Of a DNA stretch of 64,000 nt, positions 3,108 through 27,666 are shown piece by piece. This DNA comes from an uncultured bacterium. GTDB lineage: Bacteria > Patescibacteriota > Minisyncoccia > Phycocordibacterales > CAIRYW01. Position 1 is the first letter of the stretch. Each line of letters begins with the position of its first letter. A program made the position numbers and the translations under genes. Under the pieces are notes generated by a model that was not told where the DNA came from, made no database searches, and worked only from the letters and a program-made list of their open reading frames with translations. The stretch is from NCBI GenBank assembly GCA_903882905.1, contig CAIRYW010000019.1, positions 1,406 to 65,405 of the forward strand, written 5' to 3'.

Positions 3108-3391
3108 CCCAGCACCTTTTTATGCACTATGTGTATGTAATACAAAGCATTATTGATAAAAGTTTATATTTTGGCATTACTAATGATCTAAGCCGTCGCC
3201 TGTTAGAGCATAATGATAAGAAAAATTTTTCCACGAGTTATAAAGGTCCATGGAGGTATGTGTACATTGAAGGATATTTAAGTAGGAAAGATGCTGCTTT
3301 GAGAGAAAAAATTTTTAAGCATTACGGTAATGCACGGACTTATGTTAAACGTCGATTGAAAAATAGTTTAAGTGCATAAGAAGGTGCTGGG
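3108..3391. mobile_element. CCCAGCAC-family inverted-repeat element carrying a GIY-YIG nuclease gene
   Basis: cccagcacctt (3108-3118) and aaggtgctggg (3381-3391) tightly enclose ORF 3122-3379, between pilM and pilN. Confidence 0.7.
3122..3379 (+). CDS. Small GIY-YIG nuclease family protein
   Basis: YVYVIQS...LYFGITNDLSRRLLEHN...ALRE. Confidence 0.85.
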   Translation: MHYVYVIQSIIDKSLYFGITNDLSRRLLEHNDKKNFSTSYKGPWRYVYIEGYLSRKDAALREKIFKHYGNARTYVKRRLKNSLSA

Positions 3392-3462
3392 AAAAGATAT
3401 TAACACCATTCTCACTTTAGGCATTCGCATATTTTTCTAATAAGCGCTAAAATATAAGTAAG

Positions 3463-4185
3463 ATGGAAACAAAGTTTCAAAATACATTTATACCAAAATC
3501 AGCTCTTGATACTCCAAGTATTACTCCTAATAGACAAGCGAACTTTTTGACTTTTGTTTCAATGATTATTTTTCTTTTGAGTTGTGTTTTGGCGGGTGGT
3601 GTATTTCTTTGGGGACAGTATCTTGCAGGTCAGGTGAGTTCACTAAATCAAAGTCTAGAAATAAATAAAAATGCTTTTGAACCAGGCACGATTGAACAAT
3701 ATTCTAGATTAAATAGTCGATTCGATAGTGCAAGAGGTCTTCTATCAAGTCATGTCGCAGCTTCTGCATTCTTTGATTTGCTCAACAAAGATACTTTGAA
3801 AACAATTCAATTTTCAGATTTGAAGTATTCACAAGACGGAAGCGGCCTTATTTCTATCAAAATGTCTGGTAAAGCAAAGTCATATAACTCAGTTGCTTAT
3901 CAAGCCAAAATTTTTTCAAACGAAGTAGCTTTCAAGAACGCAGTATTTTCAAATCTAGATCTTGATCAGTCTGGAAATGTGATTTTTGAATTTGATACAC
4001 AAGTTAATCCAAGTCTCGTAACCTATCAAAATAATATTGCAGCCTATAAAAATCTTTCAAATAATGTACCTCAGACTTTAAGTATTCCAGATCAAAATTC
4101 AGTTTCAAGCAGTAGTAGCGTAGGAGGTTTATCTTTTCCACCAGTAACGTCTACAAGTTCAAATGTTAAATCTATAAAAAAATAA
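3463..4185 (+). CDS. PilN-like pilus assembly protein
   Basis: N-terminal TM plus coiled coil plus ferredoxin-like pattern; sits between pilM and pilO. Confidence 0.65.
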   Translation: METKFQNTFIPKSALDTPSITPNRQANFLTFVSMIIFLLSCVLAGGVFLWGQYLAGQVSSLNQSLEINKNAFEPGTIEQYSRLNSRFDSARGLLSSHVAASAFFDLLNKDTLKTIQFSDLKYSQDGSGLISIKMSGKAKSYNSVAYQAKIFSNEVAFKNAVFSNLDLDQSGNVIFEFDTQVNPSLVTYQNNIAAYKNLSNNVPQTLSIPDQNSVSSSSSVGGLSFPPVTSTSSNVKSIKK

Positions 4186-4743
4186 ATGAAAGCAACAATT
4201 TTTCCAATATTATTAATAGCCGGTGCAATAGGACTTTTTGTCTTAGTAACAAATCCTCAGTATCAAGCGGCCAAAGATGTACAGACTCAAGTAGGTAGTC
4301 TAAGTGAAGCTTTGGGTAAGTCCGAGCAAATTCTTGCAAAAAGATCCGAATTACAAATACAATATAATAATTTTTCTTCCAAAGATATTACCTCGATTGA
4401 CAAACTTCTTCCTGACAATGTCGATAACGTCCAATTGGTACTTGATATGAATGGAATCGCAAGAAATCATGGTATGGTTCTTAGAAATATAAAAATTCAG
4501 GATCAGGGCGGTTCTGGAAACGCTAGTGCGCAAGGAACTCAAGCTTTAGGTCCAAATAATAGTCCAGTTGGCTCTTTGTCGCTCTCTTTTGATGTAACAG
4601 GAGATTACCAAAGCTTCACAGGTTTTCTAAAGGATTTGGAACAAAGTCTTAGGATCGTTGATGTTACTGGAATTAGTTTTAAATCGACAGATAAGGGTAT
4701 CTACGATTATGTAGTAAATATAAAAACCTATTGGTTAAAATAA
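4186..4743 (+). CDS. pilO: Type IV pilus assembly protein PilO
   Basis: TM, LLPD, GDYQSFTGFLKDLEQSLRIVDV. Confidence 0.8.
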   Translation: MKATIFPILLIAGAIGLFVLVTNPQYQAAKDVQTQVGSLSEALGKSEQILAKRSELQIQYNNFSSKDITSIDKLLPDNVDNVQLVLDMNGIARNHGMVLRNIKIQDQGGSGNASAQGTQALGPNNSPVGSLSLSFDVTGDYQSFTGFLKDLEQSLRIVDVTGISFKSTDKGIYDYVVNIKTYWLK

Positions 4744-4746
4744 AAT

Positions 4747-5157
4747 ATGAAAGATTTATACGAAAAATTTAAATTACCAATCATTATCATAGCCCTCTTG
4801 GGTTTGGCTTTTGTTTTTTACAACATGTTTTTTAAAACTACAGCCGACTCCTCTGCACTTGTTAGTAATCCTGTTTCAGGTAACTCTGTTTCTGCAGATT
4901 TTTTGCCACTCCTACTTAAAATTCAGGATATCAAATTTGATCAAGGTTTTTTTGCAAATAGTACATACACTTCACTTAAAGATTTTGGTCAAACAATAAT
5001 TACTGAAGATAAACAAAGGAATGATCCATTTTCTCCTGTCTCTGGAGTAAATGTTTCTTCTTCTACTGTCGAAGGTTTAGGATTTACTGTGCAAACTGTT
5101 ACAGGAACATCAACTACTTCTTCTTCAAATTCTACAGCAACAGTTAAGACTAAATAA
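4747..5157 (+). CDS. Membrane-anchored pilus-cluster protein (PilP position)
   Basis: N-terminal TM, RNDPF motif, Ser/Thr-rich tail; gene order. Confidence 0.5.
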   Translation: MKDLYEKFKLPIIIIALLGLAFVFYNMFFKTTADSSALVSNPVSGNSVSADFLPLLLKIQDIKFDQGFFANSTYTSLKDFGQTIITEDKQRNDPFSPVSGVNVSSSTVEGLGFTVQTVTGTSTTSSSNSTATVKTK

Positions 5158-5160
5158 AAT

Positions 5161-6882
5161 ATGGATTTAATTACGATTCTTTCAAAAAAAGGAGTACTTT
5201 CTTCTGGAGATGCTGATAGAGCAAGATCTGAATCAAAATCCCCAGAGGATATCGAGGAGATTTTGAAATCATATGGTATCAGCAAAACTGATATTCTTTC
5301 TGCAAAAGGAGAAGAGATGAACATTCCTACAAAAGAGATTGAAAATCCAAATATACCGATGGAGACGCTTAAGTATATTCCAGAGGATTCTGCTAATTAC
5401 TATCAAGTTATTCCACTCGGTTTAAATAAGGGTGCCCTTGAAGTTGGGATTGTTGATCCGGAAAATATAGAGGCTAGAGATGCTATAAGCTTTATTGCTT
5501 CAAAAAATAACGTTCCTTATAAAATATTTTTAATTTCTAAAGAAGATTTTGATAAAGGAATACTTGCTTACAAAGGACTTTCTGGAGAAGTGACCAGAGC
5601 TCTTTCTGAACTGGAAGAAGACCTTACCGACGAAGAGAAGGAAATGATCAGTCTTAAAGATGAAAATATAAACAGAAAGATCAATTCTGTGAATATTATC
5701 GAGGATGCGCCGGTAAAAAAAATAGTTGCGACGATTTTACGATACGCTATTGAAGGTGAGGCTTCTGATGTCCACATAGAACCAATGGTTGATAAGGTCA
5801 GAGTACGTTTTAGACTCGATGGAGCATTGCATACATCACTTATTTTGCCTATAAAAGTATTAAATACTGTAGTAGCGAGAATAAAAATTCTTTCGGATAT
5901 GAAACTTGATGAAAAAAGAAAACCACAAGATGGTCGTTTTAGTGCACGTATAGATGGCAGAAAAATTGATTTTCGTGTTTCAACTTTCCCAACTTACTAT
6001 GGAGAAAAAGTGGTTATGAGAATTCTTGACCAAGCTAAGGGGGTTAAACCCCTTGATGATCTGGATATTTCAGAGAGGGATTTAAAAATGATTAAAGAGG
6101 CTATACACAAACCATACGGATTGATTTTAATTTCTGGTCCTACGGGTTCTGGAAAGACAACTACTCTATATTCTATGCTTGGTGAAGTTGATAAAGAATC
6201 AAACAATGTACTCTCACTTGAAGATCCTGTTGAATACAACGTAGAAGGAATGAGTCAATCACAAATCAGACCTGAGATCGATTATACTTTTGCTAACGGA
6301 CTTAGAACTACTCTGAGACAAGACCCAGATATTATTATGGTGGGAGAAATTAGAGATAAAGAAACTGCTGCTCTTGCGATTCAAGCAGCACTTACAGGAC
6401 ACCTTGTGTTCTCAACTATTCACACAAATGATGCAATCGGGGTAATACCAAGATTGGTAGATATGGGTGTTGATCCGTACCTTATTGCTCCAACCTTGAT
6501 TTTATCAATGGCCCAAAGATTAGTCGCAAAAATTGCTCCAGGAGGAGGAAAAGAAATGCCAATAGAAGGAAGTATTCAAGTCATGATAGATAAACAATTT
6601 GTAGATTTACCTGAAGAATTTAAGAGTTCAATTCCAAAAGGAAATACTGTAGTTGAGGCGATCCCTACGAGCGAGTTTCCAAAAGGTACTCACGGAAGAA
6701 TAGGTGTGTTTGAAGTCTTTAAGATGGATAGGGAATTAGAAAATATTATTCTCACAAATCCAATAGAGACGGAAATTTGGAAAGTTGTTAGAAAACAAGG
6801 AATGTTTACTATGAAAGAAAACGCTATTGTTAAAGCCATAAAGCATGAAATTCCTTTTGAAGAAATAAGTGGTCTTGCTTAA
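5161..6882 (+). CDS. pilB: Pilus extension ATPase PilB (GspE/PulE family)
   Basis: ASDVHIEP, PQDGRF, GPTGSGKTTT, EDPVEY, LRQDPDIIMVGEIRD. Confidence 0.95.
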   Translation: MDLITILSKKGVLSSGDADRARSESKSPEDIEEILKSYGISKTDILSAKGEEMNIPTKEIENPNIPMETLKYIPEDSANYYQVIPLGLNKGALEVGIVDPENIEARDAISFIASKNNVPYKIFLISKEDFDKGILAYKGLSGEVTRALSELEEDLTDEEKEMISLKDENINRKINSVNIIEDAPVKKIVATILRYAIEGEASDVHIEPMVDKVRVRFRLDGALHTSLILPIKVLNTVVARIKILSDMKLDEKRKPQDGRFSARIDGRKIDFRVSTFPTYYGEKVVMRILDQAKGVKPLDDLDISERDLKMIKEAIHKPYGLILISGPTGSGKTTTLYSMLGEVDKESNNVLSLEDPVEYNVEGMSQSQIRPEIDYTFANGLRTTLRQDPDIIMVGEIRDKETAALAIQAALTGHLVFSTIHTNDAIGVIPRLVDMGVDPYLIAPTLILSMAQRLVAKIAPGGGKEMPIEGSIQVMIDKQFVDLPEEFKSSIPKGNTVVEAIPTSEFPKGTHGRIGVFEVFKMDRELENIILTNPIETEIWKVVRKQGMFTMKENAIVKAIKHEIPFEEISGLA

Positions 6883-6950
6883 AAAATGTTACAATAATGC
6901 TAAAGATTACTGGTTAGGAATTTAAAAAGTAAATTTTAAATTAAAAAAAC

Positions 6951-7343
6951 ATGGAAGAGGATAAAAACAAAAAAAAATTCAGTGTAGTATTGGTTGACGA
7001 CGACAAATTCCTTTTGAATATGTATGCGATGAAATTTACGAAAGAAGGTTATGGTATTACCGCTTTTCAATCTTCAGAAGAAGCATTAGAAAAATTTAGA
7101 CTAGGACTTAGTCCAGACGTAGTTCTTTTGGATGTTGTAATGCCTGGTATGGATGGACTTTCTTTGTTAAAAATATTACGTGATGAAAAACTTATACTAA
7201 ACTCAGCTGTTGTCATACTTTCAAATCAAGGAGCTCAAAGCGATATAGATAATGCAAAGGCCTTAAAAATTGATGGATATATTGTGAAAGCAACAACTAT
7301 TCCATCAGAAGTTTTGAGAGAAGTCTCTAGAATTGTCGAATAA
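6951..7343 (+). CDS. Single-domain response regulator receiver
   Basis: LVDDD, LLDVVMPGMDG, YIVK. Confidence 0.9.
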   Translation: MEEDKNKKKFSVVLVDDDKFLLNMYAMKFTKEGYGITAFQSSEEALEKFRLGLSPDVVLLDVVMPGMDGLSLLKILRDEKLILNSAVVILSNQGAQSDIDNAKALKIDGYIVKATTIPSEVLREVSRIVE

Positions 7344-7369
7344 AAAAAAGCAAATAATTTATAAAAAAT

Positions 7370-8431
7370 ATGGATTACGACAAAGAAATCAAAGAATTAC
7401 TCGAAACTGTCATAAGAGAGGGAGCGTCCGATTTACATATTTCAGAAAAAAGACACCCAACTATTAGGGTTTCAGGTAATTTAATTCCGCTTGTGAAAAA
7501 AGAAGCATTTTCAACACAAGATACCAGAGGAATACTTCGAAAATTGGTTAAACCAGAACTTGAAGATGCTTTTGAAAAAAATAAAGAAATAGATTTTTCA
7601 TATGAATTTGAAGGAAAAGCACGTTTTAGAGGAAATGCTTTTTTCCAACAAGGGCATATTTCAATTGCCCTACGATTAATTCCTAAAATAATTCAATCCC
7701 TTGAAGAATTAAAACTTCCAGCAATTTTGGGTGATTTTGCAAAGAAGAAGCAGGGATTCTTTTTGGTTGTTGGTCCCGTTGGGCAAGGAAAGACTACAAC
7801 TCTTGCCTCGATGGTTGAATTAATAAACCAAGAAAGAGCCGAACACATTGTGACAATTGAAGATCCTATCGAATATGCTTATGATCAAAAAAAATCAATC
7901 ATCGATCAGCGCGAAGTAAGAATTGATACAAAAGATTTTCACTCTGCTCTTATTTCAACTCTCAGAGAAGATATGAATGTGATCATGGTAGGAGAGATGA
8001 GAGACCCTGAGACAATGTCAGCTGCTGTAACAGCGGCAGAAACAGGTCACTTGGTATTTTCTACACTACATACAAATAATGCCGCTCAGACTATTGATAG
8101 AATTATTGACTCATTTCCTCCAGGACAGCAGGAACAAATTAGAATTCAACTTGCGGGATCTCTCATTGGAGTATTTTCACAAAGACTTATTCCTAGAATT
8201 TCAGGTGGAAGAATTCCTGCTTATGAATTAATGATTGCGAATGATGCAGTAGCAAACTTGATTCGTGAAAAAAGAGTTCATGAAATTGATACTGTAATTG
8301 AGACAAGCTCAGAGCAGGGAATGATTGATATGAATAGATGTTTGGCTGATTTGGTGCGTGCTGGGGAAATCACAATCGAAAATGCTTATAAGTTTGCATT
8401 TAAACCAAAGTCGCTTGAGAAGATGTTGTAG
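7370..8431 (+). CDS. pilT: Pilus retraction ATPase PilT
   Basis: ASDLH, GPVGQGKTTT, EDPIEY, GEMRD, AAETGHLVFSTLHT, AVANLIRE. Confidence 0.95.
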   Translation: MDYDKEIKELLETVIREGASDLHISEKRHPTIRVSGNLIPLVKKEAFSTQDTRGILRKLVKPELEDAFEKNKEIDFSYEFEGKARFRGNAFFQQGHISIALRLIPKIIQSLEELKLPAILGDFAKKKQGFFLVVGPVGQGKTTTLASMVELINQERAEHIVTIEDPIEYAYDQKKSIIDQREVRIDTKDFHSALISTLREDMNVIMVGEMRDPETMSAAVTAAETGHLVFSTLHTNNAAQTIDRIIDSFPPGQQEQIRIQLAGSLIGVFSQRLIPRISGGRIPAYELMIANDAVANLIREKRVHEIDTVIETSSEQGMIDMNRCLADLVRAGEITIENAYKFAFKPKSLEKML

Positions 8432-8464
8432 AAATTAAGGAGCAAAGCGACTATAATTTCAAAA

Positions 8465-8590
8465 CCCAGTACTAACTTTTCGGAACAATTTAAAAAAAAT
8501 GAGAATTAATAAATTACATAACATATTGAAAATAAAAATCAGTCAGACGACTGATTTTTGTGGTAAATTATCAGAAAAGTTAGTGCTGGG
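8465..8590. repeat. CCCAGCAC-family inverted-repeat element (non-coding)
   Basis: cccagtactaacttttc (8465-8481) and gaaaagttagtgctggg (8574-8590), with an internal hairpin aaaaatcagtc-agac-gactgattttt. Confidence 0.75.
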
Positions 8591-8630
8591 TGGCGATTTT
8601 AATACTCGCTTCACTCGTTAAAAATCAGCC

Positions 8631-9830
8631 ATGCTCTTCAACTACAAAGCCATAGATCCAAAAGGTACTCAAATAAGCGGATCAGTAGATGCCGTTTCTA
8701 CTGATAGTGCTATTTCCTCAATTCAAAAAAGAGGACTTGTAATTGTTAGTATCAATGAAGCAAAAAAAGGATTTAATCAGACTTTCAGTTTTTTAAACCG
8801 AGTAAAAAATAAAGATATAGTTATCCTTTCAAGACAAATTGCCACTCTTTTCACCGCTCAAGTTTCAGCTCTTAGAGTCTTTAGAATGCTTTCTGACCAA
8901 ACAGATAATCCAGCACTTGGTGTAGTGCTTGTTGAAGTTGCAAGTGATTTGCAAGGGGGAACCTCTATATCAAAAGCTCTATCAAAACATCCAAAAGTTT
9001 TTTCAAATTTCTATGTAAATATGGTTAAAGCAGGGGAGGAGTCTGGGAAACTTGATCTTACTTTTACATACTTGGCAGATTATCTAGATAGAAATTTTGC
9101 AGTAACATCAAAAGCAAAAAATGCTCTGATTTATCCAGCTTTCGTAATTTTTACTTTTATTGTTGTTATGGCTGTGATGTTTACAGTTGTTATCCCTCAG
9201 ATAACTTCGATTATTACTGATGCTGGTCAAGCTATTCCTTTATCTACTCAAATAGTTATCGGTATTAGTAATTTCCTGAGAGATTACGGAATATTTTTAG
9301 TTATTGCAATATTAATTGCAGGTTTTTTTGTTATCAAATACAGCAGAACCGAAAAAGGTTCTTACGCCTTATCCGAATTTCAGTTGCTAGTTCCATATGT
9401 TGGGACTTTATATAAAAAACTTTATCTTTCAAGAATTGCAGATAATATGAACACCTTACTTACTTCTGGAGTACCTATGGTCCGTGCACTTGAACTTACA
9501 GCAGATGTTGTTGATAACAGGGTTTATCAAACGATTCTTCTTGCTTCATTAGAAGCCGTGAAAGCTGGTAGCACTCTTTCTGATGCTTTTTCAAAATATG
9601 AGCAAATTCCGGGGATTATTGTTCAAATGGTAAAAGTTGGAGAGGAGACAGGGGAACTCGGAAAAATTTTGGAAACTTTAGCAAAGTTTTACGAAAGAGA
9701 GGTAGTAAATGCTGTTGATACTCTTGTTGATTTAATTGAACCTGTCATGATTGTTGTGTTAGGTTTGGGTGTCGCCTTTTTGCTTGTTTCTGTGCTTATG
9801 CCTATCTACAACTTGTCCTCGTCAATTTAA
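8631..9830 (+). CDS. pilC: Type IV pilus platform protein PilC (T2SSF family)
   Basis: MVKAGEESGKLD, ALIYP, MVKVGEETGEL, LIEP. Confidence 0.95.
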   Translation: MLFNYKAIDPKGTQISGSVDAVSTDSAISSIQKRGLVIVSINEAKKGFNQTFSFLNRVKNKDIVILSRQIATLFTAQVSALRVFRMLSDQTDNPALGVVLVEVASDLQGGTSISKALSKHPKVFSNFYVNMVKAGEESGKLDLTFTYLADYLDRNFAVTSKAKNALIYPAFVIFTFIVVMAVMFTVVIPQITSIITDAGQAIPLSTQIVIGISNFLRDYGIFLVIAILIAGFFVIKYSRTEKGSYALSEFQLLVPYVGTLYKKLYLSRIADNMNTLLTSGVPMVRALELTADVVDNRVYQTILLASLEAVKAGSTLSDAFSKYEQIPGIIVQMVKVGEETGELGKILETLAKFYEREVVNAVDTLVDLIEPVMIVVLGLGVAFLLVSVLMPIYNLSSSI

Positions 9831-9852
9831 GGAGAAAAAACTTAGAGGCTTA

Positions 9853-9907
9853 AAAACCTGCGAGGCTAAGCCTCAAGGATTTTAAGAGGCTTAGCCTCGC
9901 AGGTTTT
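9853..9907. repeat. 22-bp inverted repeat made of two AGG-N5-CCT mini-palindromes (REP-like)
   Basis: aaaacctgcgaggctaagcctc and gaggcttagcctcgcaggtttt. Confidence 0.75.
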
Positions 9908-9921: not shown

Positions 9922-9961
9922 CCCAGCACCTTCTTTTGCTGCAGCAAAAGAAGGTGCTGGG
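9922..9961. repeat. Perfect 40-bp palindrome; minimal CCCAGCAC-family element
   Basis: cccagcaccttcttttgctg|cagcaaaagaaggtgctggg. Confidence 0.85.
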
Positions 9962-11120: not shown

Positions 11121-11486
11121 ATGAAAAAAGGTTTTACACTTATCGAACTTTTAGTTGTTATTGCAATAATTGGTATTTTGTCTTCTGTGGTTCTTACGTC
11201 TTTGAATGGTGCGAGAGACAAAGCAAAAATTTCTGCTTTCAAGTCTGAACTTTCTTCTCTTCAGTCTGGGTTGGTAAGTATTTGTGATTCTAGAGATATT
11301 GATGTTGCAACTGATACTCCAGCAATTGGTGCCCATAGCGCAGCTGATATTGCGAGTTTTGCACAAAGTTGTGCCGATGACACCGACCCGGTTTATACAT
11401 TTAGTGTTACATTCACTCCAACAAATGGTGCTGCCTGCACTGATGGGACTATCACTGATTCTACTACTACGTACACTGGTTGCTAA
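11121..11486 (+). CDS. Type IV pilin (paralog of 10128)
   Basis: MKKG|FTLIE; C-terminus TYTGC. Confidence 0.9.
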   Translation: MKKGFTLIELLVVIAIIGILSSVVLTSLNGARDKAKISAFKSELSSLQSGLVSICDSRDIDVATDTPAIGAHSAADIASFAQSCADDTDPVYTFSVTFTPTNGAACTDGTITDSTTTYTGC

Positions 11487-11536: not shown

Positions 11537-12019
11537 ATGAAAAAAGGTTTTACCCAGCACCAAGTTTTCACAAAACAAGAGTTAATCAAGCGTAAGTTTT
11601 CTATTAGAAAACTTAGTGCTGGGTTTACACTTATCGAACTTTTAGTTGTTATTGCAATAATTGGTATTTTGTCTTCTGTGGTTCTTACGTCTCTAAGTGG
11701 GGCACAAGATAAAGCTAGAAAAGCTGCGGTGATTTCAAGCTTGCAGAGTATTATGCACGAACTTACAATGTGTGATATTGATGGTGGTTTTGGTAGAACG
11801 GAAAACCCTATAGTAGCTGGCGATTATATATGTGTCACTCCAAGTGGAACTGTTAATACTCCTATGACAAATCATACGGCTACTTGGCCAAACATTACAG
11901 GTATTGGTGGTACATATGGGAGTGCTAGGAATGCATTTTCAACTGGAACCTATTCTTATATAGCGACAGTTAATGGTGCAACCATAACTTGTACTTACTC
12001 AACCCAAGTTTGTAGTTAA
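11537..12019 (+). CDS. Type IV pilin (paralog of 10617) with a 25-codon insertion in the leader
   Basis: MKKGFT[QHQVF...KLSAGFT]LIELL; ATG 11537. Confidence 0.9.
   Translation: MKKGFTQHQVFTKQELIKRKFSIRKLSAGFTLIELLVVIAIIGILSSVVLTSLSGAQDKARKAAVISSLQSIMHELTMCDIDGGFGRTENPIVAGDYICVTPSGTVNTPMTNHTATWPNITGIGGTYGSARNAFSTGTYSYIATVNGATITCTYSTQVCS
11553..11623. mobile_element. CCCAGCAC-family MITE inserted in frame in a pilin leader, with TTTA target-site duplication
   Basis: 17-bp IR cccagcaccaagttttc / gaaaacttagtgctggg; TTTA at 11549-11552 and 11624-11627; the empty site is visible in paralog 11121. Confidence 0.85.
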
Positions 12020-12534: not shown

Positions 12535-13356
12535 ATGTTTTATTATCTTTCAGCAGTAATTTTTGTTGTCGGTACGATTATTGGCAGTTTTCTTAATGTC
12601 GTCGCTCTTAGAATCAATACTGGTAAGGGCTTAATGGGTAGGTCTTTTTGCATGTCTTGTGGAAAGACAATAAAATCATATGATCTTTTTCCTATCTTGA
12701 GTTTTCTATCTCTGGGTGGAAAATCCCGTTGTTGCAAGACAAAAATTTCTTGGCAGTATCCTTTGGTTGAATTTATCACAGGACTAATTTTTCTTTCAGT
12801 TTTTTTAAAGTTTTATAGTCTTGCATACGTTCCAGTTTTGGTTCCAACTTTTTGGTATTTAGCTTTTTGTATTTTGATTGTTATCACGATTTATGATGTA
12901 AGACATCAGATTATTCCAGATTTTCTTTCATATACTTTTGCATTTTTATCTGTTTTATATTTTGTTGGAGATAAAAGTCTTACAAGTATTTTTTCTTATC
13001 CAGAAATTTTAAATTTTTTGGCTGGCCCAATTATTTTTGCTGTGTTCTCTTTGGTTTGGTTTGTTTCAAAAGGGAGATGGATTGGTTTTGGAGATGGAAA
13101 ACTAGCCCTTGGAATGGGGTTTGCATTAGGATTTTCAGAAGCTCTTTCGGCAATTGCTTTTGCCTTTTGGATCGGGGCAATCTGGAGTATTTTTATACTA
13201 CTTTTTCAAAAACTTGGTATTGCAAAAAGTAAATTTAATTTTAAGAGCGCTGTGCCGTTTGCACCATTTATGATTGCGGGATTTCTTTTGGCTTTTATTT
13301 TGAGCGCTGATGTTTTTAGTTTAAATATGTTAATTTTTGGCCCAGCACCTTTTTAA
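12535..13356 (+). CDS. pilD: Prepilin peptidase (A24)
   Basis: GSFLNV, RSFCMSC, YD...IIPD, GFGDGKL, VPFAPF. Confidence 0.92.
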   Translation: MFYYLSAVIFVVGTIIGSFLNVVALRINTGKGLMGRSFCMSCGKTIKSYDLFPILSFLSLGGKSRCCKTKISWQYPLVEFITGLIFLSVFLKFYSLAYVPVLVPTFWYLAFCILIVITIYDVRHQIIPDFLSYTFAFLSVLYFVGDKSLTSIFSYPEILNFLAGPIIFAVFSLVWFVSKGRWIGFGDGKLALGMGFALGFSEALSAIAFAFWIGAIWSIFILLFQKLGIAKSKFNFKSAVPFAPFMIAGFLLAFILSADVFSLNMLIFGPAPF

Positions 13357-13440
13357 TTTGTTAAAATCATGAGTTTAATTAAAATAATAAAAAAATATTT
13401 TTCAAAAAAAAATCTTAATGAAGTACAAAAAGGTGCTGGG
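13341..13440. mobile_element. CCCAGCAC-family element spanning the pilD stop and the next pilin's start and leader
   Basis: Perfect 14-bp IR cccagcaccttttt / aaaaaggtgctggg. Confidence 0.75.
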
Positions 13441-14076
13441 TTCACCCTCGTCGAAATGATGGTGGTCGTGGCTATTGTAATTGTCATGACTTCTATTTTG
13501 CTTTTGAAACAATCAAAGTTTTCAAGTGATATTTTGGTTACAAACGCTGCTTACGAAGTAGCCCTCTCAATCCGAGAAGCTCAAGTTTATGGTATTAGTT
13601 CCAAACAAACTTCCACAAATTTAAATGTTGGATATGGAATATATTTAGACAATTCATCCACAAATTCTTTTACTATTTATTCTGATGGCGGCTATTCTAG
13701 TAGTAATACATATAATTACACTTTTAATTACGGAGATACTGGCGAATCTTATGTTTCAATAGAAAATCCTCAACTTACACAAGGTCAGACAATAAAAAAA
13801 ATTTGCGTTGCTTCGACAATGAATAATATTAGTTGTTCTGATACTGATTCAACGCTCACAAAACTTAATATAGGTTTTATAAAGCCAAACCCTGAAGCTT
13901 TAATATATAAAAATGGTACTACTGGTACATCAAATAGGCTAAATGAAGCTTTTATAGTCGTTGCATCTGTTCTTGGAGATAAATGTAGAGTCGTCCGAAT
14001 AACTTCTATTGGACAAATATCAGTTGATACTCCTCGTCCTCTAGGTGACGAATGTACCGCTTTACCAACATTATGA
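13369..14076 (+). CDS. Minor pilin (FimT/GspH-like)
   Basis: KGAG|FTLVEMMVVVAI. Confidence 0.85.
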   Translation: MSLIKIIKKYFSKKNLNEVQKGAGFTLVEMMVVVAIVIVMTSILLLKQSKFSSDILVTNAAYEVALSIREAQVYGISSKQTSTNLNVGYGIYLDNSSTNSFTIYSDGGYSSSNTYNYTFNYGDTGESYVSIENPQLTQGQTIKKICVASTMNNISCSDTDSTLTKLNIGFIKPNPEALIYKNGTTGTSNRLNEAFIVVASVLGDKCRVVRITSIGQISVDTPRPLGDECTALPTL

Positions 14077-14645: not shown

Positions 14646-14743
14646 CCCAGCACCTTTATCTTTTCAAAATCATGAACTTCATAAATAAAACAAAAAAATA
14701 TTTTTTAAAGAAAAATTTATACAAAGCACATAAAGGTGCTGGG
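14646..14743. mobile_element. CCCAGCAC-family element supplying the start codon and leader of a minor pilin
   Basis: cccagcacctttat / ataaaggtgctggg; interior homologous to 13341-13440. Confidence 0.75.
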
Positions 14744-15292
14744 TTCACATTAATTGAAACTATGGTTGCAATTACCATCCTTCTTGTAACTATTGTTGGA
14801 CCGATGGAGATCGCTTCGAAAGCTTTATTTTCTGCTTTTTATGCTAGAGATCAAATAACTGCATATTATTTAGCACAAGAGGGTATAGAGTCTTTAAGAA
14901 ACTTCAGAGATGTTTATTATTTAAATGGCTTTACTGGTTGGCCTTCTTTTGTGACAGATTGTTCATATGACGGGATAAGTAAGTATGGGTGTAAAGTTGG
15001 TGCTTCTAGTGGTGCGAATCCTGTTTATAGTGTATTAAAATGTACTGCTAAATGTGATACACCTAGTGATGCCCTATATTACAATAGTGGGAATGGTATA
15101 TATTCTTATATTACTGATTCTGGTAATACCAAATCAAAATATACTAGATTAGTGAAAGTTACCCCAGATGCAACAAATCCTAATGATGCCGCGCTCGTTG
15201 AATCGACAGTTTATTGGACAGGAAGTTATCTATCGAGCGGTACAAAATCTTTTACAATAAAAGAAATGCTTTATAACTGGCAGACGAAATAA
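14672..15292 (+). CDS. Minor pilin (PilV-like)
   Basis: KGAG|FTLIETMVAI, AYYLAQEGIE. Confidence 0.85.
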   Translation: MNFINKTKKYFLKKNLYKAHKGAGFTLIETMVAITILLVTIVGPMEIASKALFSAFYARDQITAYYLAQEGIESLRNFRDVYYLNGFTGWPSFVTDCSYDGISKYGCKVGASSGANPVYSVLKCTAKCDTPSDALYYNSGNGIYSYITDSGNTKSKYTRLVKVTPDATNPNDAALVESTVYWTGSYLSSGTKSFTIKEMLYNWQTK

Positions 15293-20456: not shown

Positions 20457-20458
20457 TG

Positions 20459-20784: not shown

Positions 20785-21474
20785 GTGCCAATATATAAGG
20801 AAGTAAACAAAAAATTTTTCAAAAAATGGAATCCTGAGATGGCTTACGTTTTGGGTTTTTTTGCTGCTGATGGATATATAACGATAAATAAAAGAGGTGG
20901 TCATTTTTGGTCGATTCAAATTACAGATGAAGATTTACTTAATAATATAAGAAGAGTTATTAGATCAAATCATAAAATCAGTTCAAGAAAAAAAATCGGT
21001 AATAAGAAAATTAGTTATAGATTACAAATAGGAAGTATGGAAATGTGTGAGGATTTGTCCCAATTAGGATTTAGCGAAAGAAAAACGAAAAATCTTTCTA
21101 TCCCAAATGTTCCTGAAAAGTATTTCAAAGATTTTGTTAGGGGATATTTTGATGGAGATGGGAATGTTTGGGTTGGTTACACGCATAAAAAAAGTAAAAA
21201 TCCGCTTAATGTTGTTAGAACAGTCTTTACTTCTTGTGCTTTAGAGTTTCTTAGCACTTTAGGAAAAAGACTTGAAAAATTTTCAATATACAAAGGTGTA
21301 GTTAGTAAAGGAAAGGGAAATTACTACAGACTTACGTATAGTGTTCACGGTTCTTTAAAATTATATGATTTTATGTATAATGGTCTAAAATCAGATTTAT
21401 TTCTTAATAGAAAGAAAATGGTTTTTGATAGGTTTATCGAAAGTAGAAGAGTTGCGGCTGTAGCTCAACGGTAG
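20785..21474 (+). CDS. Free-standing double-motif LAGLIDADG homing endonuclease
   Basis: AYVLGFFAADG and FVRGYFDGDG; GTG start 6 nt after TATAAT; stop codon lies within tRNA-Asp. Confidence 0.85.
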   Translation: MPIYKEVNKKFFKKWNPEMAYVLGFFAADGYITINKRGGHFWSIQITDEDLLNNIRRVIRSNHKISSRKKIGNKKISYRLQIGSMEMCEDLSQLGFSERKTKNLSIPNVPEKYFKDFVRGYFDGDGNVWVGYTHKKSKNPLNVVRTVFTSCALEFLSTLGKRLEKFSIYKGVVSKGKGNYYRLTYSVHGSLKLYDFMYNGLKSDLFLNRKKMVFDRFIESRRVAAVAQR

Positions 21475-21742: not shown

Positions 21743-21774
21743 CAAGAAAAAAACGCCTAAAGGCGTTTTTTTTT

Positions 21775-21922
21775 GTGGCTGAGAAAGGTGTGGGACACCT
21801 TTCGCAAGGGCGATGATGGGCGCAACGATGTTTTGTCAGCAGACAAAACAGTGAGCTGGGATAGCAAAATTTCCGAGCGACGGCGAAGAAATATTTGTGA
21901 TCATCACCCTTCAGCCGCGCAA
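21775..21922 (+). repeat. tRNA-linked structured element (Asp copy) ending in a 24-bp duplicate of the tRNA 3' end
   Basis: gatcatcacccttcagccgcgcaa at 21722-21745 and 21899-21922; split antisense copy at 21775-21817. Confidence 0.75.
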
Positions 21923-21923
21923 T

Positions 21924-21948
21924 AAAAATCCCCGAAAGGGGATTTTTT
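21924..21948 (+). terminator. Intrinsic terminator
   Basis: aaaaatcccc-gaaa-ggggattttt. Confidence 0.75.
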
Positions 21949-22029
21949 CGTGGTCAATAAAAGCATAAGTAACGAAATAGATAAACCTACGTCTTTTGTG
22001 TTGTCTAAATCTGGTATAATTTTCTACAT

Positions 22030-23067
22030 ATGAAAAACTCTCAAAAAGGATTTATTGGTAAATTAGTTCTAATTATTATCGCAATCCTAATTATAGGTGG
22101 TTTATTTTTATACTATCAAAATAATAATCAATCAAAAGTAAATAATAATGTGGTCGATAATTTTTTATCGAAATGTGGTTTTAAAGTAACTTCAATTACT
22201 CCAAATGAAAAAGTAAATTTTCCTTTAATTGTGAAAGGTGTGATCGATAATTCAAATGCAAAAACTCTTGGGTGCTCTTGGCAAATGTTTGAAGGTGAAG
22301 CTGGTGTAGCGCAATTATATTTCAATAATAATCAAAGTTGGAATCCGATTGGTGTCGGTGTACCAATAAATGTTGCTGATTGGATGACTACGTCGACTAC
22401 CTTTTCCGTATTACTTAACTTTAATAATGACGGAATTGGGTTGTCTACAGGAACTCTAATGAAAATTACTTTCACAGAAGAAAATCCATCAGGACAAGGA
22501 ATAACTGATTCAATAGATCTTCCTATTATATTCGGTAACATTTCCTCTGTCTCAGAAAATGCAGTCTATGAAAATAAGCTAAACGGTTTTTCTTTTTCCT
22601 ATCCAAGTAAATTTAGTCTCGCAGATAATGAAACTATTTTAAATCAACCTTGGGAATACAATACAACAGATACTGGAAATTTAATTGCAAGAGTTGTGAT
22701 CCCAAGAACTATTCAGCCGAAAACAAATTTTGGTGAAGCTTATTTCGATGTCGGTGTGAGCACGAGTACAGATTCAATAAAAAATTGTCTTATATCTTCA
22801 GGTGTTAATACAACAGATGTATCTAGTATAAGTATAAATGACCAGAGTTTTGAAGTTTTTCATTACAACGACGCAGGAGCTGGAAATTTTTATGATGTAA
22901 CAAGTTATCATACAGTCAAGAATGGAAAATGTTTTGTGCTGGAATCTTTTGTTCATTCGTCAAATATAGGGAATTATTCACCGGACCAAGGAATAAAAGA
23001 ATTCGATAAAATTTTAGTAAATAATATTTTGAAAAATATAGTTGAATCATTCCAGTTTTTAAATTGA
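22030..23067 (+). CDS. Surface protein with a pilin-like (class III) N-terminus
   Basis: MKNSQKG|FIGKLVLIIIAILII; FEGE motif and FSFSYP...GAG PsbP-like C-terminal region. Confidence 0.6.
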   Translation: MKNSQKGFIGKLVLIIIAILIIGGLFLYYQNNNQSKVNNNVVDNFLSKCGFKVTSITPNEKVNFPLIVKGVIDNSNAKTLGCSWQMFEGEAGVAQLYFNNNQSWNPIGVGVPINVADWMTTSTTFSVLLNFNNDGIGLSTGTLMKITFTEENPSGQGITDSIDLPIIFGNISSVSENAVYENKLNGFSFSYPSKFSLADNETILNQPWEYNTTDTGNLIARVVIPRTIQPKTNFGEAYFDVGVSTSTDSIKNCLISSGVNTTDVSSISINDQSFEVFHYNDAGAGNFYDVTSYHTVKNGKCFVLESFVHSSNIGNYSPDQGIKEFDKILVNNILKNIVESFQFLN

Positions 23068-23082
23068 TTTAAATAAAAATAT

Positions 23083-23502
23083 ATGGAAGAAAAAGAATTT
23101 AGAGTTGGTGTCGGCGTGATGATTTTTAAAGAAAATAAGATTCTACTTGGCAAGAGAAAGGGAAGTCATGGGTCAGGAGAATTTTCTTTCCCAGGAGGAA
23201 AAATGGAATACAAAGAATCTTTCAAAGATTGTGTTTTACGAGAAATTAAGGAAGAGTGTGGAGTAGAAATCGATAATATTGAATTTTTGATTGTCGCAAA
23301 TATAAAACAATATTTACCAAAACATCATGTCCTTGTGGGCTTTAGAGCGACATGGAAATCGAGTGAGCCTGCAGTATTGGAGCCAGAAAAATGTGAAGGC
23401 TGGGGTTGGTACGACTTAGATAAACTACCTGAACCACTTTTTGAAGCATCAAAAATAATGATTGATGCTTATAAAGATAAAAGATCTTTCCTAGATAGCT
23501 AA
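23083..23502 (+). CDS. NUDIX hydrolase (NUDT15-like)
   Basis: PGG....ESFKDCVLREIKEECG; EPEKCEGWGW. Confidence 0.9.
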   Translation: MEEKEFRVGVGVMIFKENKILLGKRKGSHGSGEFSFPGGKMEYKESFKDCVLREIKEECGVEIDNIEFLIVANIKQYLPKHHVLVGFRATWKSSEPAVLEPEKCEGWGWYDLDKLPEPLFEASKIMIDAYKDKRSFLDS

Positions 23503-24011
23503 ATAATCTTTCCTTTTAATATTTTCATTACGTCTTTTCTAACTGCCGGGATTTTTTTGTTTGCATCTATAAAAATTGCATCTTTAAACTTTGGCGCTGA
23601 ATAGCGTAAGCAATTTTTTTTGATATCTCTTATTGTTCTACATTTTTTTCTACTTCTAGCTCTTTTAATACTATTTTCTAATTTAGTTTTTAAAAAAAGA
23701 TGAATATAATTTATTTTTCCTATTTTTATTTTTAATTCCTTTATTAATACTACTGTCCATGAACTACTTATTACAACATTTATATTTTTTGCAATATAGG
23801 AATTAATCATGTCAATCATCACACGTCTTGTGAGATTGTGATAAGAAATATTTTTCTGAAATGAATTAATAAAATATTTTATTATATCCATATCCAAAAA
23901 AACTGTTTTATTTGGAAGTTTTTTCTTTAGGTAACTAGCAAGAGTTGTTTTACCGGCACCTATAGGCCCATTTATTAGTAAAACAAAAGGTTTTACTTTA
24001 TGAGTTTTCAT
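23499..24011 (-). CDS. P-loop kinase / AAA family protein
   Basis: INGPIGAGKTT; very AT-rich. Confidence 0.7.
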   Translation of the reverse strand: MKTHKVKPFVLLINGPIGAGKTTLASYLKKKLPNKTVFLDMDIIKYFINSFQKNISYHNLTRRVMIDMINSYIAKNINVVISSSWTVVLIKELKIKIGKINYIHLFLKTKLENSIKRARSRKKCRTIRDIKKNCLRYSAPKFKDAIFIDANKKIPAVRKDVMKILKGKII

Positions 24012-24084
24012 ATCTTCATTATATCACACTTTATAATAAAGAGCAATTAGCTAATAATAAGATAGTCTGTAGAATTATAAAACT

Positions 24085-24780
24085 ATGAGCAAGACTTTTT
24101 GGGAAAAAGAATATAAAGATCCAAGACATTTAGCGATGTCAGATGAGCCTGCAGAAGACTTAATTCATTTTGCTAAGTGGACAGTTAGGAATGCAGAATG
24201 GAATCCATTTCCAAAAGATGGCTTTACACTTGATATTGGTTGTGGAAATGGAAGGAATATTATAAATCTTTGTGAAGAATACAATATGCATGGATTAGGT
24301 ATAGATATTTCGTCTACTGCAATTGAACAAGCTACAAACAAGACAAAAACAAAAAATTTAAAAATTAATTACGTAATAATGGAGGTAAAGGATCGGCTAC
24401 CAATCGAAGATGCAACTTGTGACGTCGTTTTAGATATGATGACTTCACATTTTTTGAATGAAGCAGATAGAAAATCTTTGGCGTTAGAGATTGCAAGAGT
24501 TACAAAGCCCTATGGTTGGGTAATGTTTAAAACTTTTATTATGGATGGAGATAGTCATGCGAAAAGATTGATTAAAGAATTTCCAGCCGGAGAAGAGGGA
24601 AGTTATATTCATCCAAAAATAAAGGTTGCTGAACATGTTTTTACTGAACAAGAAATTTATGATTTATTTTCTCCGAATTTTAAAATATTTAAGATGTTGA
24701 AAAGTTATAAGCATGTTCTTGATGGCAAACCACACAAGAGGAGAACAGTTTCTGTTTATCTAGAAAGAAAGAGAGATTAA
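24085..24780 (+). CDS. Class I SAM-dependent methyltransferase
   Basis: LDIGCGNGRN, GIDIS. Confidence 0.88.
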   Translation: MSKTFWEKEYKDPRHLAMSDEPAEDLIHFAKWTVRNAEWNPFPKDGFTLDIGCGNGRNIINLCEEYNMHGLGIDISSTAIEQATNKTKTKNLKINYVIMEVKDRLPIEDATCDVVLDMMTSHFLNEADRKSLALEIARVTKPYGWVMFKTFIMDGDSHAKRLIKEFPAGEEGSYIHPKIKVAEHVFTEQEIYDLFSPNFKIFKMLKSYKHVLDGKPHKRRTVSVYLERKRD

Positions 24781-24796
24781 TAATTAATAAAAAAAT

Positions 24797-25228
24797 ATGC
24801 AATCAAAAGATTTAACAAAAGAAGCCCCAAGAAGTCCTTATGAATTAATTAATGGTTTTACTATCTTAGCAAGGACAATAGATAAGTGCAGAGCTGTTAT
24901 TGCTGAAACAAATGGAGAATACCACTTTGATTGTCCTTTGGATAAAGCTTTATTTGGTTTTAAAGGAATCGATGCAAACGAGTTTAAGGATTTTGTTGCA
25001 TCAGGTAGTAGTGATGAAGAAATCGGAGAGTGGGTTTTTGAACATGGAACTCAAAAAACAGTTGATGAAATAAAAACTTGGAGTAAACATTTTCATTCTG
25101 ATTTCTCTTACTCAACAGATCCAAATAAAAGCACTTGGTTTAAAGGTGAATGCGAAAGACTTGGACTTGATCCAATGAAAACAACCCTTTTTGATTATCT
25201 AGAAGTAGACGATAAGGCAAGTTTTTAA
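24797..25228 (+). CDS. DUF5069-like protein
   Basis: PRSPY, LARTIDKCRA, GEYHFDCPLD. Confidence 0.7.
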   Translation: MQSKDLTKEAPRSPYELINGFTILARTIDKCRAVIAETNGEYHFDCPLDKALFGFKGIDANEFKDFVASGSSDEEIGEWVFEHGTQKTVDEIKTWSKHFHSDFSYSTDPNKSTWFKGECERLGLDPMKTTLFDYLEVDDKASF

Positions 25229-25285
25229 AATACTTTTTTTAAATTGAAAATACTGTCCGATTATAATAGTATGTGCTGACAACTT

Positions 25286-25552
25286 GCCGTTGTAGCTCAG
25301 TTGGTAGAGCACGTCATTGGTTAGTTAAATAGCCCATCATTTTGGAAACGAAATGATGAATCCCGAATTACGGTTAAAGTCCACGCAAGTGGGTAAGACC
25401 GTGGCGAGAAATCGCCCGAACGACTGACAAGGGACGCTAAACCGAAAAGGTATGTGTAAGATACAGTCTAATCCTTTTATAAGTCATTGCGGCGAAATAA
25501 AGGTAGGAAATGAATGACGAGGTCTCCGGTTCAATCCCGGACAACGGCTCCA
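25286..25552 (+). tRNA. tRNA-Thr(GGT) split by a group I intron (exons 25286-25321 and 25513-25552)
   Basis: Acceptor gccgttg/caacggc plus TCCA; spliced loop tt GGT|aa; exons sum to 76 nt. Confidence 0.88.
25322..25512 (+). ncRNA. Group I intron (191 nt) at position 36/37
   Basis: P1 ggt|ta-gttaaa-tagcc with U.G; P7 gactg/cagtc (aacgactga, aagatacagtc); terminal G. Confidence 0.85.
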
Positions 25553-25553
25553 T

Positions 25554-25589
25554 TTAAAAACCACCAGCAAATTTGCTGGTGGTTTTTAA
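25554..25589. terminator. Bidirectional terminator (perfect palindrome)
   Basis: ttaaaaaccaccagcaaatttgctggtggtttttaa between convergent genes. Confidence 0.75.
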
Positions 25590-25613
25590 TTTCCATAGAA
25601 TCAGATATCACAT

Positions 25614-25838
25614 TTAGGCAGATATTTTTGAAGATGAAACGCACGCTTTGCAAGTTTTTTTGTGAATTACAACTTCAACGATTGCAGCAACACCGACAAG
25701 AATGTAGACAATATTTGCTAAAGTACTTCCTGCTCCAAAAGCCATTGCGACTAAGTCCCATCCTCCAATTCCTACCAAAAGCCAGTTAAGGCCTCCAATA
25801 ATAAGAAGGATGAAAGAAATCATGTGAATAGTTTTCAT
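25614..25838 (-). CDS. DUF378 family membrane protein
   Basis: LLIIGGLNWLLVG...DLV...VYILVG. Confidence 0.85.
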   Translation of the reverse strand: MKTIHMISFILLIIGGLNWLLVGIGGWDLVAMAFGAGSTLANIVYILVGVAAIVEVVIHKKTCKACVSSSKISA

Positions 25839-26033
25839 AGAGTTTTGAAATTAAATTGTTAATTTCGACCTCGAGTCTGACACTTAAATTATAACACTTT
25901 ATTTAGAGTTATAGACACCTAAGAGAATAATGTTTGAGCCTTTGCAACAATTAATAAGGTTTGATGACTTTCATCTTGATTTAGAGACCATATTGAAATG
26001 TAATGGTACATTATCAAATTCGTCATATAGGTT

Positions 26034-26477
26034 GTGAGGAACATACCAAAAAAATATTTAATTGTGATTGGGGTTTTTGTTGTTGTTGTCTTGGTGTCAC
26101 TTTTTATTATATTTAATCCATTCAATCATCTCGATAGCGCCACACTTGCCGCAAGAAGAGGAGCTACCGAACTCTTATCAGTCACCATCATGACTGATTT
26201 AGTTAGTTACTATAATGTTGAGAGTAATTTTTTGGACTTCTCAAAAAGTCTTGCAGTAAAACAAAAAATTGCGGGGGAGATTTTAGATCTAAAAACAAAA
26301 TACGGAGGAGACTATGATTATAAAATTTTTGAAATATCAGAAAGGGGATTGTCTATTAAGACAGTCGAGAAAACTACGGGGACTTATTATTGTATCGATA
26401 ACGCAACCTATGTTCCTGTTGAAATTAAAAGCGATCAATTTACTGTAAATTCAGATTGTACTGGAAAAAGATTGTGA
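26034..26477 (+). CDS. Hypothetical membrane-anchored protein
   Basis: N-terminal TM; C-terminal YYCID..C resembling pilin globular ends. Confidence 0.55.
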   Translation: MRNIPKKYLIVIGVFVVVVLVSLFIIFNPFNHLDSATLAARRGATELLSVTIMTDLVSYYNVESNFLDFSKSLAVKQKIAGEILDLKTKYGGDYDYKIFEISERGLSIKTVEKTTGTYYCIDNATYVPVEIKSDQFTVNSDCTGKRL

Positions 26478-26532
26478 TTTTTTTAAATTAAGTAATTGAT
26501 TTATTCGGTGCTATGTAATATCTTTTCTTAGT

Positions 26533-26608
26533 GCCGATGTAGCTCAGTTGGTAGAGCAGGCGCTTCGTAAGCGTCAGGTCGACAGTTCGATTCTGTCCAT
26601 CGGCTCCA
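26533..26608 (+). tRNA. tRNA-Thr(CGT)
   Basis: Canonical 76-nt cloverleaf, loop tt CGT aa, CCA encoded. Confidence 0.95.
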
Positions 26609-26676
26609 TAAATATAGAATATCTATATTTAGAGAATCGAAAAGCGCAGATATATTTTTCTGGTAATATTGTATTA

Positions 26677-27549
26677 ATGAAAGAAGAAAAAGAGAAAAGA
26701 ATATTAGAAATAGAACAACTTATGACAGGCTCGGATTTTTGGGCTGATAAAGAAAAAGCTCAACTTTTGATTAAAGAATTACAGGAGTTAAAGACTACTG
26801 TTGAGGGCGGAAGTCCCTTTGATAGCGGAGATGCTATTTTGACGATTTTTTCTGGAGCAGGGGGAATTGATTCTGAAGATTTTGCCTCAATGCTTCTTTC
26901 GATGTACCAAAAATATGTTGCAAAGAGAGGATGGGGAACGTACTTGGTTCATGAAAATAAAAATGATCATGGTGGAATTCGCAATACTACTTTTGAAATA
27001 AAAGGAAAGAACGCGTATGGAATTTTAAAAAATGAATCAGGTGTTCATCGTCTTGTGCGACTTTCTCCGTTTAATTCAAAAAGTTTGAGACATACCTCAT
27101 TTGCAATGGTTGAAATAATTCCAAAGTTTGAAAAAAAAATGAATATAGAGGTACCAGAATCTGAACTTAAAATTGAATTTTCAAAATCTAGTGGTCCAGG
27201 AGGACAAAATGTAAACAAAAGAGAAACAGCTGTGAGGATTGTTCATGTTCCAACAAAAATTTCGGTGCATGTAGATTCTCAGAGGAGTCAGGGACAAAAT
27301 AAAGAAAAAGCACTTGAGATTTTAAAAGGCAAACTCTACACGATTTTTGAGGCAGAAAGAATTGCTCGAGAAAAGGGAATGCAAATATCTAAGACCACAG
27401 ATGTGGAGTGGGGAAATCAGATTCGCTCTTATGTTTTGCATCCATATAAGATGGTTAAGGACCATAGAACGAATGTTGAGACCGCAAATACAGAAGCTGT
27501 TTTAAATGGAGATATCGAAAAATTCTTAGAAGCCGAAAAATTTCTGTGA
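26677..27549 (+). CDS. prfB: Peptide chain release factor 2 (shortened N-terminus)
   Basis: GAGG, RLSPF, GGQ, WGNQIRSY; ATG 26677 chosen because the longer ORF start lies inside a tRNA. Confidence 0.9.
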   Translation: MKEEKEKRILEIEQLMTGSDFWADKEKAQLLIKELQELKTTVEGGSPFDSGDAILTIFSGAGGIDSEDFASMLLSMYQKYVAKRGWGTYLVHENKNDHGGIRNTTFEIKGKNAYGILKNESGVHRLVRLSPFNSKSLRHTSFAMVEIIPKFEKKMNIEVPESELKIEFSKSSGPGGQNVNKRETAVRIVHVPTKISVHVDSQRSQGQNKEKALEILKGKLYTIFEAERIAREKGMQISKTTDVEWGNQIRSYVLHPYKMVKDHRTNVETANTEAVLNGDIEKFLEAEKFL

Positions 27550-27561
27550 AGAAATTTTGAG

Positions 27562-27666
27562 GCCCAGCACATAGTTTTTCTGATTTCGTGCCATGTTGGT
27601 CTAATTTTGATATAATTAATACACATTGAGTTTTAATTTTCTACCCAGAAAAACTATGTGCTGGGC
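27562..27666. repeat. CCCAGCAC-family element upstream of ftsE
   Basis: Perfect 21-bp IR gcccagcacatagtttttctg / cagaaaaactatgtgctgggc; encloses TGATATAAT. Confidence 0.8.

Follow-up and report, generated by a model that had tools for sequence, protein, structure and literature searches.

Palindrome-ended mobile elements of Patescibacteria: a full-length form encoding only an Slx1-like GIY-YIG nuclease as its likely mobilizer

A 64,000-nt stretch of the genome of an uncultured patescibacterium (hereafter the window; position 1 is its first letter) contains seven inserts, E1 to E7, that end in inverted copies of the 8-bp core CCCAGCAC, and the largest of them encodes a GIY-YIG nuclease as its only gene. 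Are such inserts mobile, and if so, what moves them? Standard insertion sequences (ISs) use DDE, DEDD, HUH, or serine/tyrosine enzymes. As a result of the present analysis, the palindrome-ended inserts are recognized as a real and widespread mobile family in Patescibacteria. We consider it likely that this is a small palindrome-ended mobile element, the full form of which encodes only an Slx1-like GIY-YIG nuclease, and the same nuclease is its likely mobilizer. The observation made in an initial annotation of the window is confirmed, and its interpretation, namely an autonomous nuclease element with six gene-less derivatives, is partly supported. Below, G000 is the source genome and Cnn are its contigs, other G-numbers are related genomes, and L-numbers are the individual loci examined.

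The window contains 14 exact copies of CCCAGCAC, compared with 0.49 on average and at most 3 in shuffled sequences. Thirteen of them are element arms, and the remaining site (8358-8365) is unpaired and lies within pilT. All seven elements described initially were recovered (Table 1), although their termini are not fully identical, since the left arm of E2, CCCAGTAC, has one mismatch in the core. The arms are 14-21 bp long and match at 20/21 (E1), 16/17 (E2), 20/20 (E3), 16/17 (E4), 14/14 (E5), 14/14 (E6), and 20/20 (E7) positions; E3 is indeed a perfect palindrome. Beyond the core, the arms vary from copy to copy, with pairing kept inside each copy. Thus, for the 16 paired copies of the genome (nine of them outside the window, each 37-43 bp long), arm positions 9-16 show 7.7/8 matches within a copy versus 5.0/8 between copies, in agreement with the initial description. 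The type IV pilus locus houses six of the seven window copies, the exception being E7, which is located before ftsE. Contigs of run X1, which may be the source sample, cross E1, E2, E5, and E6 with zero differences; no joint skipping or inverting any element was found in reads or contigs, the contigs being uninformative in this respect because they drop rare variants.

GIY-YIG domains hydrolyse DNA. The gene of E1 encodes, as had been proposed, a single 85-aa protein (P0001) with PF01541 as the sole domain (E 1e-13). Eleven residues are invariant across 29 aligned sequences, including Y5, Y16, G18, R26, H30, and E62, which we take to be catalytic. The predicted model (predicted local distance difference test score of 90) has UPF0213 and Slx1 as the closest solved folds (PDB 7cq3, 6seh, 1zg2), with a root-mean-square deviation of 1.2 over 74 columns from Slx1 7cq3; the Slx1 structures are larger chains with Slx4. 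The distances of 3 and 1 nt reported between the gene and the arms hold for the 11-bp perfect core only, whereas the 21-bp arms overlap the first and last codons. Likewise, the insertion was assigned to a pilM-pilN junction, of which pilM is correct, whereas the next gene has no Pfam match and is pilN by position only. Four short GIY-YIG genes are present in the genome. Near-perfect arms, differing in sequence, surround the genes of E1 and C21:20132-20433, a gene on C10 has gapped arms, and a UPF0213-like GIY-YIG gene in the window (42331-42576) has no inverted repeats and serves as a natural control.

The linkage between gene and arms extends to other genomes. At a homolog threshold of E 1e-8, 72 of 150 genomes of the order were positive, and the best match in each of the top 29 was examined. 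Inverted repeats (IRs) flank 22/29 of these closest homologs from the same order versus 0/108 shifted controls; a lack of IR flanks elsewhere, which the initial annotation had named as a refuting outcome, was thus not observed. A metagenome search with the left arm and gene start only returned 121 stretches; of the 80 examined, 73 were long enough to be scored. A matching right arm was found for 41/43 GIY-YIG genes versus 3/30 other stretches, and the three arm-paired stretches lacking GIY-YIG look like deleted derivatives. The NTS scan found 1 nuclease among the 80 loci examined, and a further homolog search gave 4 relatives. The architecture also occurs outside Patescibacteria: a Desulfobacula genome contains three copies of an IR-flanked GIY-YIG element that do not differ in sequence, flanks included (L010-L012).

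On the nuclease tree (few columns; seven rows left out, two identical and five on long branches), arm type changes 29 times, against a minimum of 41 for shuffled labels, and target class 13 times, against 27. The gene and the arms therefore travel together. The other members of the E1 nuclease clade (support 99/97) are inserted in 16S rRNA genes (three copies) or between genes (two copies); the unit has accordingly moved between loci. The E1 relatives L088, L090, and L439 are located within 16S rRNA genes (Rfam matches for L088 and L090) and match the GIY-YIG open reading frames known from non-intron insertions in rRNA genes of the candidate phyla radiation (CPR; PMC11270868). The accessible text of that paper treats them as sparse rRNA insertions and does not connect them with palindromes dispersed in genomes or with targets other than rRNA; the term "inverted repeat" is absent from its main text.

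Sites without elements were observed both in relatives and in a paralog, consistent with the mobility proposed initially. E1 is missing at 15/15 readable orthologous pilM-pilN junctions (19 relatives), E2 is missing in 10 relatives, E3 in 9, and E5 and E6 in 6 each; E7 is common to G001 and missing in G002, G003, and G008. For E4, the empty sequence is shown by the paralogous neighbouring pilin at 11121, and a 40-nt insertion at C27:27809 has a near-clean empty site in G003. Two pilins of G001 carry a different palindrome family between TTTA duplications, one of these sites being empty in G000, and the codons occupied by E6 hold another palindromic element in the G001 ortholog of that pilin. 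In G043, one 105-bp element is found in a pilin and again at an unrelated site between TAAA duplications. The number of short copies is 9 in G000, 0 in three congeners, and 5 in G018.

Exact 4-bp duplications flank 29/133 distinct elements, 24 of them non-palindromic, compared with 4.6 (maximum 13) after shuffling. Only this length stands out, as the counts are 13 for 2 nt, 5 for 3 nt, 1 for 5 nt, and 0 for 6 and 7 nt. The outward 4-mer of the 133 elements is biased to T..A, and the duplicated 4-mers vary (TTTA, TAAA, TTGA, TTCA, and TGAA). Copies are gained and lost among related genomes, in many cases between 4-base duplications, and therefore the nuclease likely moves them.

One way in which a nuclease could spread such units resembles homing: it would cut conserved targets that lack the element (Gly-Phe-Thr codons of pilins, genes for rRNA and RNase P RNA, and tRNA starts), recombination with incoming DNA would copy the element, and the hairpin would only neutralize the insertion. 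Target classes do form nuclease clades, including eleven pilin-site proteins (support 98/88; P0001 is not among them) as well as RNase P and tRNA groups, and two neighbouring G001 pilins have nearly identical inserts. Homing, however, predicts no new duplications, yet these are seen and differ among the five 4-mers; it also predicts that a lineage keeps to a single site, whereas unrelated loci are occupied within one nuclease clade. No intron family is present among the Rfam matches of the scanned loci, and the accessible text of PMC11270868 places the CPR rRNA GIY-YIG genes outside spread by homing. We thus consider this explanation unlikely.

The Gly|Phe pilin codons hold 12/37 distinct metagenome elements, and the nuclease frame runs into the pilin at 10/13 pilin-linked metagenome loci. 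E4 is a 25-codon in-frame insertion at the Gly|Phe codons of the pilin starting at 11537. In E4, E5, and E6, the arm GGG encodes glycine before Phe-Thr-Leu-x-Glu, rebuilding the prepilin cleavage glycine. The leaders of class III signal peptides are removed by PilD, which would thus be predicted to cut off the element-encoded leader. The left ends of E5 and E6 replace the host leader, either by adjacent deletion or by gene conversion. Rickettsia palindromic elements, as presented in the accessible part of a review (PMC10969869), similarly insert in frame into coding genes; the insertions described here differ in that they occupy prepilin cleavage codons, so that they would be cut off, and in that a candidate mobilizing gene is present.

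RNA genes are also occupied. A CCCAGCAC palindrome at G000:C28:5222-5264 (L073:1523-1565) stands in place of a variable hairpin in the RNase P RNA gene, and the RNase P RNA genes of other genomes contain gene-bearing and ~100-bp elements. Related elements are located at tRNA 5' ends (L092, L094, L098, L108), with ~6-7 nt repeated on both sides and the tRNA start rebuilt. General targeting of pre-existing hairpins was rejected, as only a weak trend was seen (15/133 below the 5% level, p 0.015).

The mobilizer could instead be encoded elsewhere. The initial annotation named a DDE or HUH transposase with the same termini as the competing candidate; none was found in the genome (92% complete) or in the examined loci with the three Pfam families searched, and the IS1595 and rve profiles had no match in the genome, other DDE families being outside this search. 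Under such a scenario, palindromes resembling REPINs or miniature inverted-repeat transposable elements (MITEs) are moved in trans by a RAYT-like Y1 enzyme or an unseen DDE enzyme, and the GIY-YIG gene is cargo that colonized the loop. Terminal repeats with 4-bp duplications are a typical DDE outcome. Moreover, Y1 genes occur in 91/151 genomes and are enriched with elements even among GIY-positive genomes (25/28, p 0.03). G000 itself has two RAYT-like Y1 genes (C21:27090-27995 and C27:67300-68010). Each of these, however, has its own palindrome family, also dispersed in the genome, and all four Y1 genes inspected (the two of G000 and two located next to elements in other genomes) are associated with different repeats of their own. 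In a sample of the order, 31/41 arm sites are paired within 200 bp, and none brackets a transposase-sized interval within ~1.5 kb. Arm pairs within 5 kb do not mark any separate unit either: four are cross-pairs of known copies, and one is a weak 12/14 pair on C28. Finally, arm type tracks the nuclease clade and the catalytic residues are invariant. Mobilization in trans is accordingly judged rather improbable, although the least so of the alternatives.

Prokaryotic MITEs and their parent ISs (PMC10969869) share with the present family terminal inverted repeats, a short duplication, and gene-less copies accompanied by a rarer gene-bearing form. The only gene here is a GIY-YIG nuclease, however, and the review does not mention GIY. 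The arms of the present elements, in addition, vary beyond the 8-bp core yet pair, some perfect palindromes have no loop, and the ~100-bp copies form a class in which the interiors are unrelated. REP/REPIN sequences with RAYT, a Y1 HUH enzyme, resemble this family in that their palindromic repeats go with a cognate nuclease gene, can be stacked or nested, and are dispersed as copies in intergenic space; here, by contrast, no HUH enzyme with the present ends was found, and the gene lies inside one palindrome. Nesting of an element in an older outer palindrome, as at E2, was seen again in other genomes. The composite at C27:39390-39600 has the outer palindrome of E2 and a related interior, yet different inner arms; judging from this pair, arms can be exchanged inside one composite.

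A single-domain GIY-YIG protein (~80-100 aa; 85 aa here) tied to a palindromic repeat that is also found alone in many copies is characteristic of the Ssn (cd10448)/NTS-SRM system as well, and its authors raise an IS-like hairpin/GIY-YIG unit as a hypothesis (Chenal et al., 2025; PMC11893778). According to the accessible text, Ssn genes are flanked by complete hairpins, whereas in the present elements the two flanks together make up one palindrome, with the gene as its loop, and neither half-arm folds into a hairpin by itself. The present family also differs in showing duplications and empty sites, and the main text of PMC11893778 does not mention Patescibacteria. As a proxy for cd10448, we used seven GIY-YIG proteins encoded next to SRM matches, a narrow set with 71-100% identity. 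P0001 scores 27 bits against the profile of this set (members, 196-211) and 113 bits against the IR set, and the two sets form separate clades (support 100). An SRM motif within 150 nt was found for 7/7 proxies and for none of E1 and its 29 homologs. NTS/SRM doublets do occur in G000 (C17:40032-40106, C19:75577-75648, and 76005-76079), no Ssn-like gene being found there, and SRM repeats are found on both sides of 97-aa GIY-YIG genes in G001 (L457, L460).

These comparisons bear on a domesticated Ssn-like system, in which the nuclease and its hairpins are retained by the host as a filter for single-stranded DNA taken up in transformation, and copies arise by template switching and gene conversion rather than by transposition. 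The concentration of six copies in the type IV pilus locus fits such a role, as does the modulation of transformation by SsnA in Neisseria (accessible text of PMC11893778). E5 and E6 share an interior and have no duplications, and E7 is common to G001 and has a promoter-like site. This site was rated weak because three such sites, including this one, were found versus 1.6 expected. On the other hand, the gene is missing at the locus in all readable relatives, no IR-flanked homolog is present in G002 or G003, both duplications and transfers of the unit are observed, and SRM motifs are absent near E1 and its homologs. We regard domestication as very improbable, the least credible of the explanations considered.

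Three length classes were observed, near 30-45, 95-107, and 250-310 bp. Short palindromes are present in 30/151 genomes, and full GIY-YIG elements with CCCAGCAC ends in 7/151. Among 43 elements sized 57-156 bp, 32 fall between 95 and 107 bp, in 11/17 genomes (which are not independent). The 39 elements of 90-112 bp, including E5, E6, and E7, have 28 unrelated interior families. Fixed length combined with free content suggests a physical limit, and the ~100-bp class may represent the shortest double-stranded loop letting both ends meet. Two origins of the interiors were rejected. As captured genome fragments, they had no match elsewhere except for E2 to C27:39479-39523 and E5 to E6 (score 81 versus a shuffled maximum of 61), and one G123 interior matched itself alone (5 genomes). 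As promoter carriers, they have -10 boxes in 9/39 cases versus 10.8 after shuffling.

Several observations weigh against the nuclease as mobilizer. E1, the nuclease-bearing copy, lacks both a duplication and a clean empty site; at its position, the congener G003 has ~45 unrelated bases. An exact duplication accompanies only 2/16 copies of G000 and is absent in 104/133 elements overall. More distant homologs are IR-flanked in only 5/16 cases, three of which are identical copies. Element-bearing genomes are enriched in GIY-YIG (28/38, p 0.0003) but also in Y1 (30/38, p 0.007), 5/38 have neither, and the association between full-length elements and short copies across genomes is weak (p 0.09). 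Covariation of arms with nuclease phylogeny had been proposed as a test, and arm type does cluster on the tree; since kin share labels, this shows co-inheritance rather than co-evolution. Strand transfer by GIY-YIG domains is not known. The part of the initial interpretation that is not supported is the derivation of the six gene-less copies from E1. Their interiors have no similarity to GIY-YIG elements, and the interiors of E2 and E4-E7 were rejected as deleted GIY-YIG genes (no nhmmer match); their arms belong to several sub-types, elsewhere tied to different nuclease clades; and the E1 nuclease falls outside the pilin-inserted clade. The gene-less copies are probably relics of several sub-lineages, and not all are daughters of E1.

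With the nuclease retained as the likely mobilizer, it would recognize its own arms as a hairpin, a cruciform, or a synapsed pair, and likely cut at the base of the paired ends and at T-N-N-A targets. Host repair would likely complete the insertion, leaving the 4-bp duplication (seen on ~1/5 of copies). This duplication could result from staggered cuts followed by host fill-in and ligation, or from a circular intermediate recombining via the 4-mer. For double-stranded ends to meet, ~100 bp may be the minimal loop, perfect palindromes needing none. Copies would persist at harmless sites, such as intergenic regions, variable hairpins of RNase P and rRNA, older palindromes, and prepilin Gly|Phe codons, where restoration of the cleavage glycine would allow PilD to remove the foreign peptide. 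More tentatively, and at slightly less than even odds, the family may be a new class of bacterial transposons of ~280 bp with a lone 85-aa Slx1-like GIY-YIG protein as the transposase. Every lineage of the nuclease would then recognize hairpin ends specific to it and favour a particular target, e.g., the prepilin cleavage codons, with the peptidase neutralizing the insertion like a protein-level intron, and the ~100-bp class would be the shortest loop for end synapsis or circle formation.

The family was not found described in the literature searched, which did not cover subscription journals; the supplements of the Ssn paper could list such proteins. Mobilization by a bare nuclease would be a transposition mode not described in the same literature. 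If true, it would add a transposition chemistry with a very small mobilizer (a 280-bp element with a bare GIY-YIG nuclease). It would also account for a large part of the palindromic repeats of Patescibacteria, for their long pilin leaders, and for the GIY-YIG insertions in their rRNA genes that have so far lacked an explanation. The hypothesis of an IS-like origin of Ssn would become testable, and the many natural pairs of nucleases and hairpins could provide compact structure-specific DNA tools.

Table 1. Elements and associated genes in the window
Feature	Coordinates	Strand	Remarks
E1, full-length element, 284 bp	3108..3391		Behind pilM; 21-bp arms with one mismatch; flanks GGAA/AAAA, duplication absent
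P0001, 85-aa single-domain GIY-YIG nuclease	3122..3379	+	Slx1/UPF0213-like fold; start and stop codons inside the arms
Outer palindrome, older, degenerate	8436..8620		E2 sits in its loop
E2, gene-less copy, 126 bp	8465..8590		Between pilT-like and pilC genes; left arm CCCAGTAC
E3, perfect palindrome, 40 bp	9922..9961		Arm almost the same as the E1 right arm
E4, 71 bp	11553-11623	+	TTTA duplications 11549-11552 and 11624-11627 (whole: 11549..11627)
pilD, prepilin peptidase gene	12535..13356	+	Pfam PF01478, PF06750; predicted to cleave element-encoded leaders
E5, 100 bp	13341..13440	+	Gives pilD its last codons and stop; gives pilin 13369-14076 its ATG, 24-aa leader, and cleavage Gly
E6, 98 bp	14646..14743	+	Interior homologous to E5; gives pilin 14672-15292 its ATG, 24-aa leader, and cleavage Gly
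E7, 103 bp	27563..27665		Between release-factor gene and ftsE; loop with promoter-like site 27588-27616, + strand

Phage carriage was considered and rejected: viral contigs contain 19 distinct left-arm sites, of which one is paired (13/16 over 1327 bp), and this pair was taken as chance. Directly upstream of E3, a 55-bp palindrome of a different family is present (window 9853-9907), and a stand-alone LAGLIDADG-domain gene (229 aa) is located in the ligA-gatCA neighbourhood (window 20785-21474). The genome also contains more inverted-repeat families of 117-190 bp (C10:10153, C10:51129, C12:3903, C22:9919, and C28:31746; C17:46038 and C27:47825), and one of their end types flanks a GIY-YIG gene at a start codon in G093 (L105).

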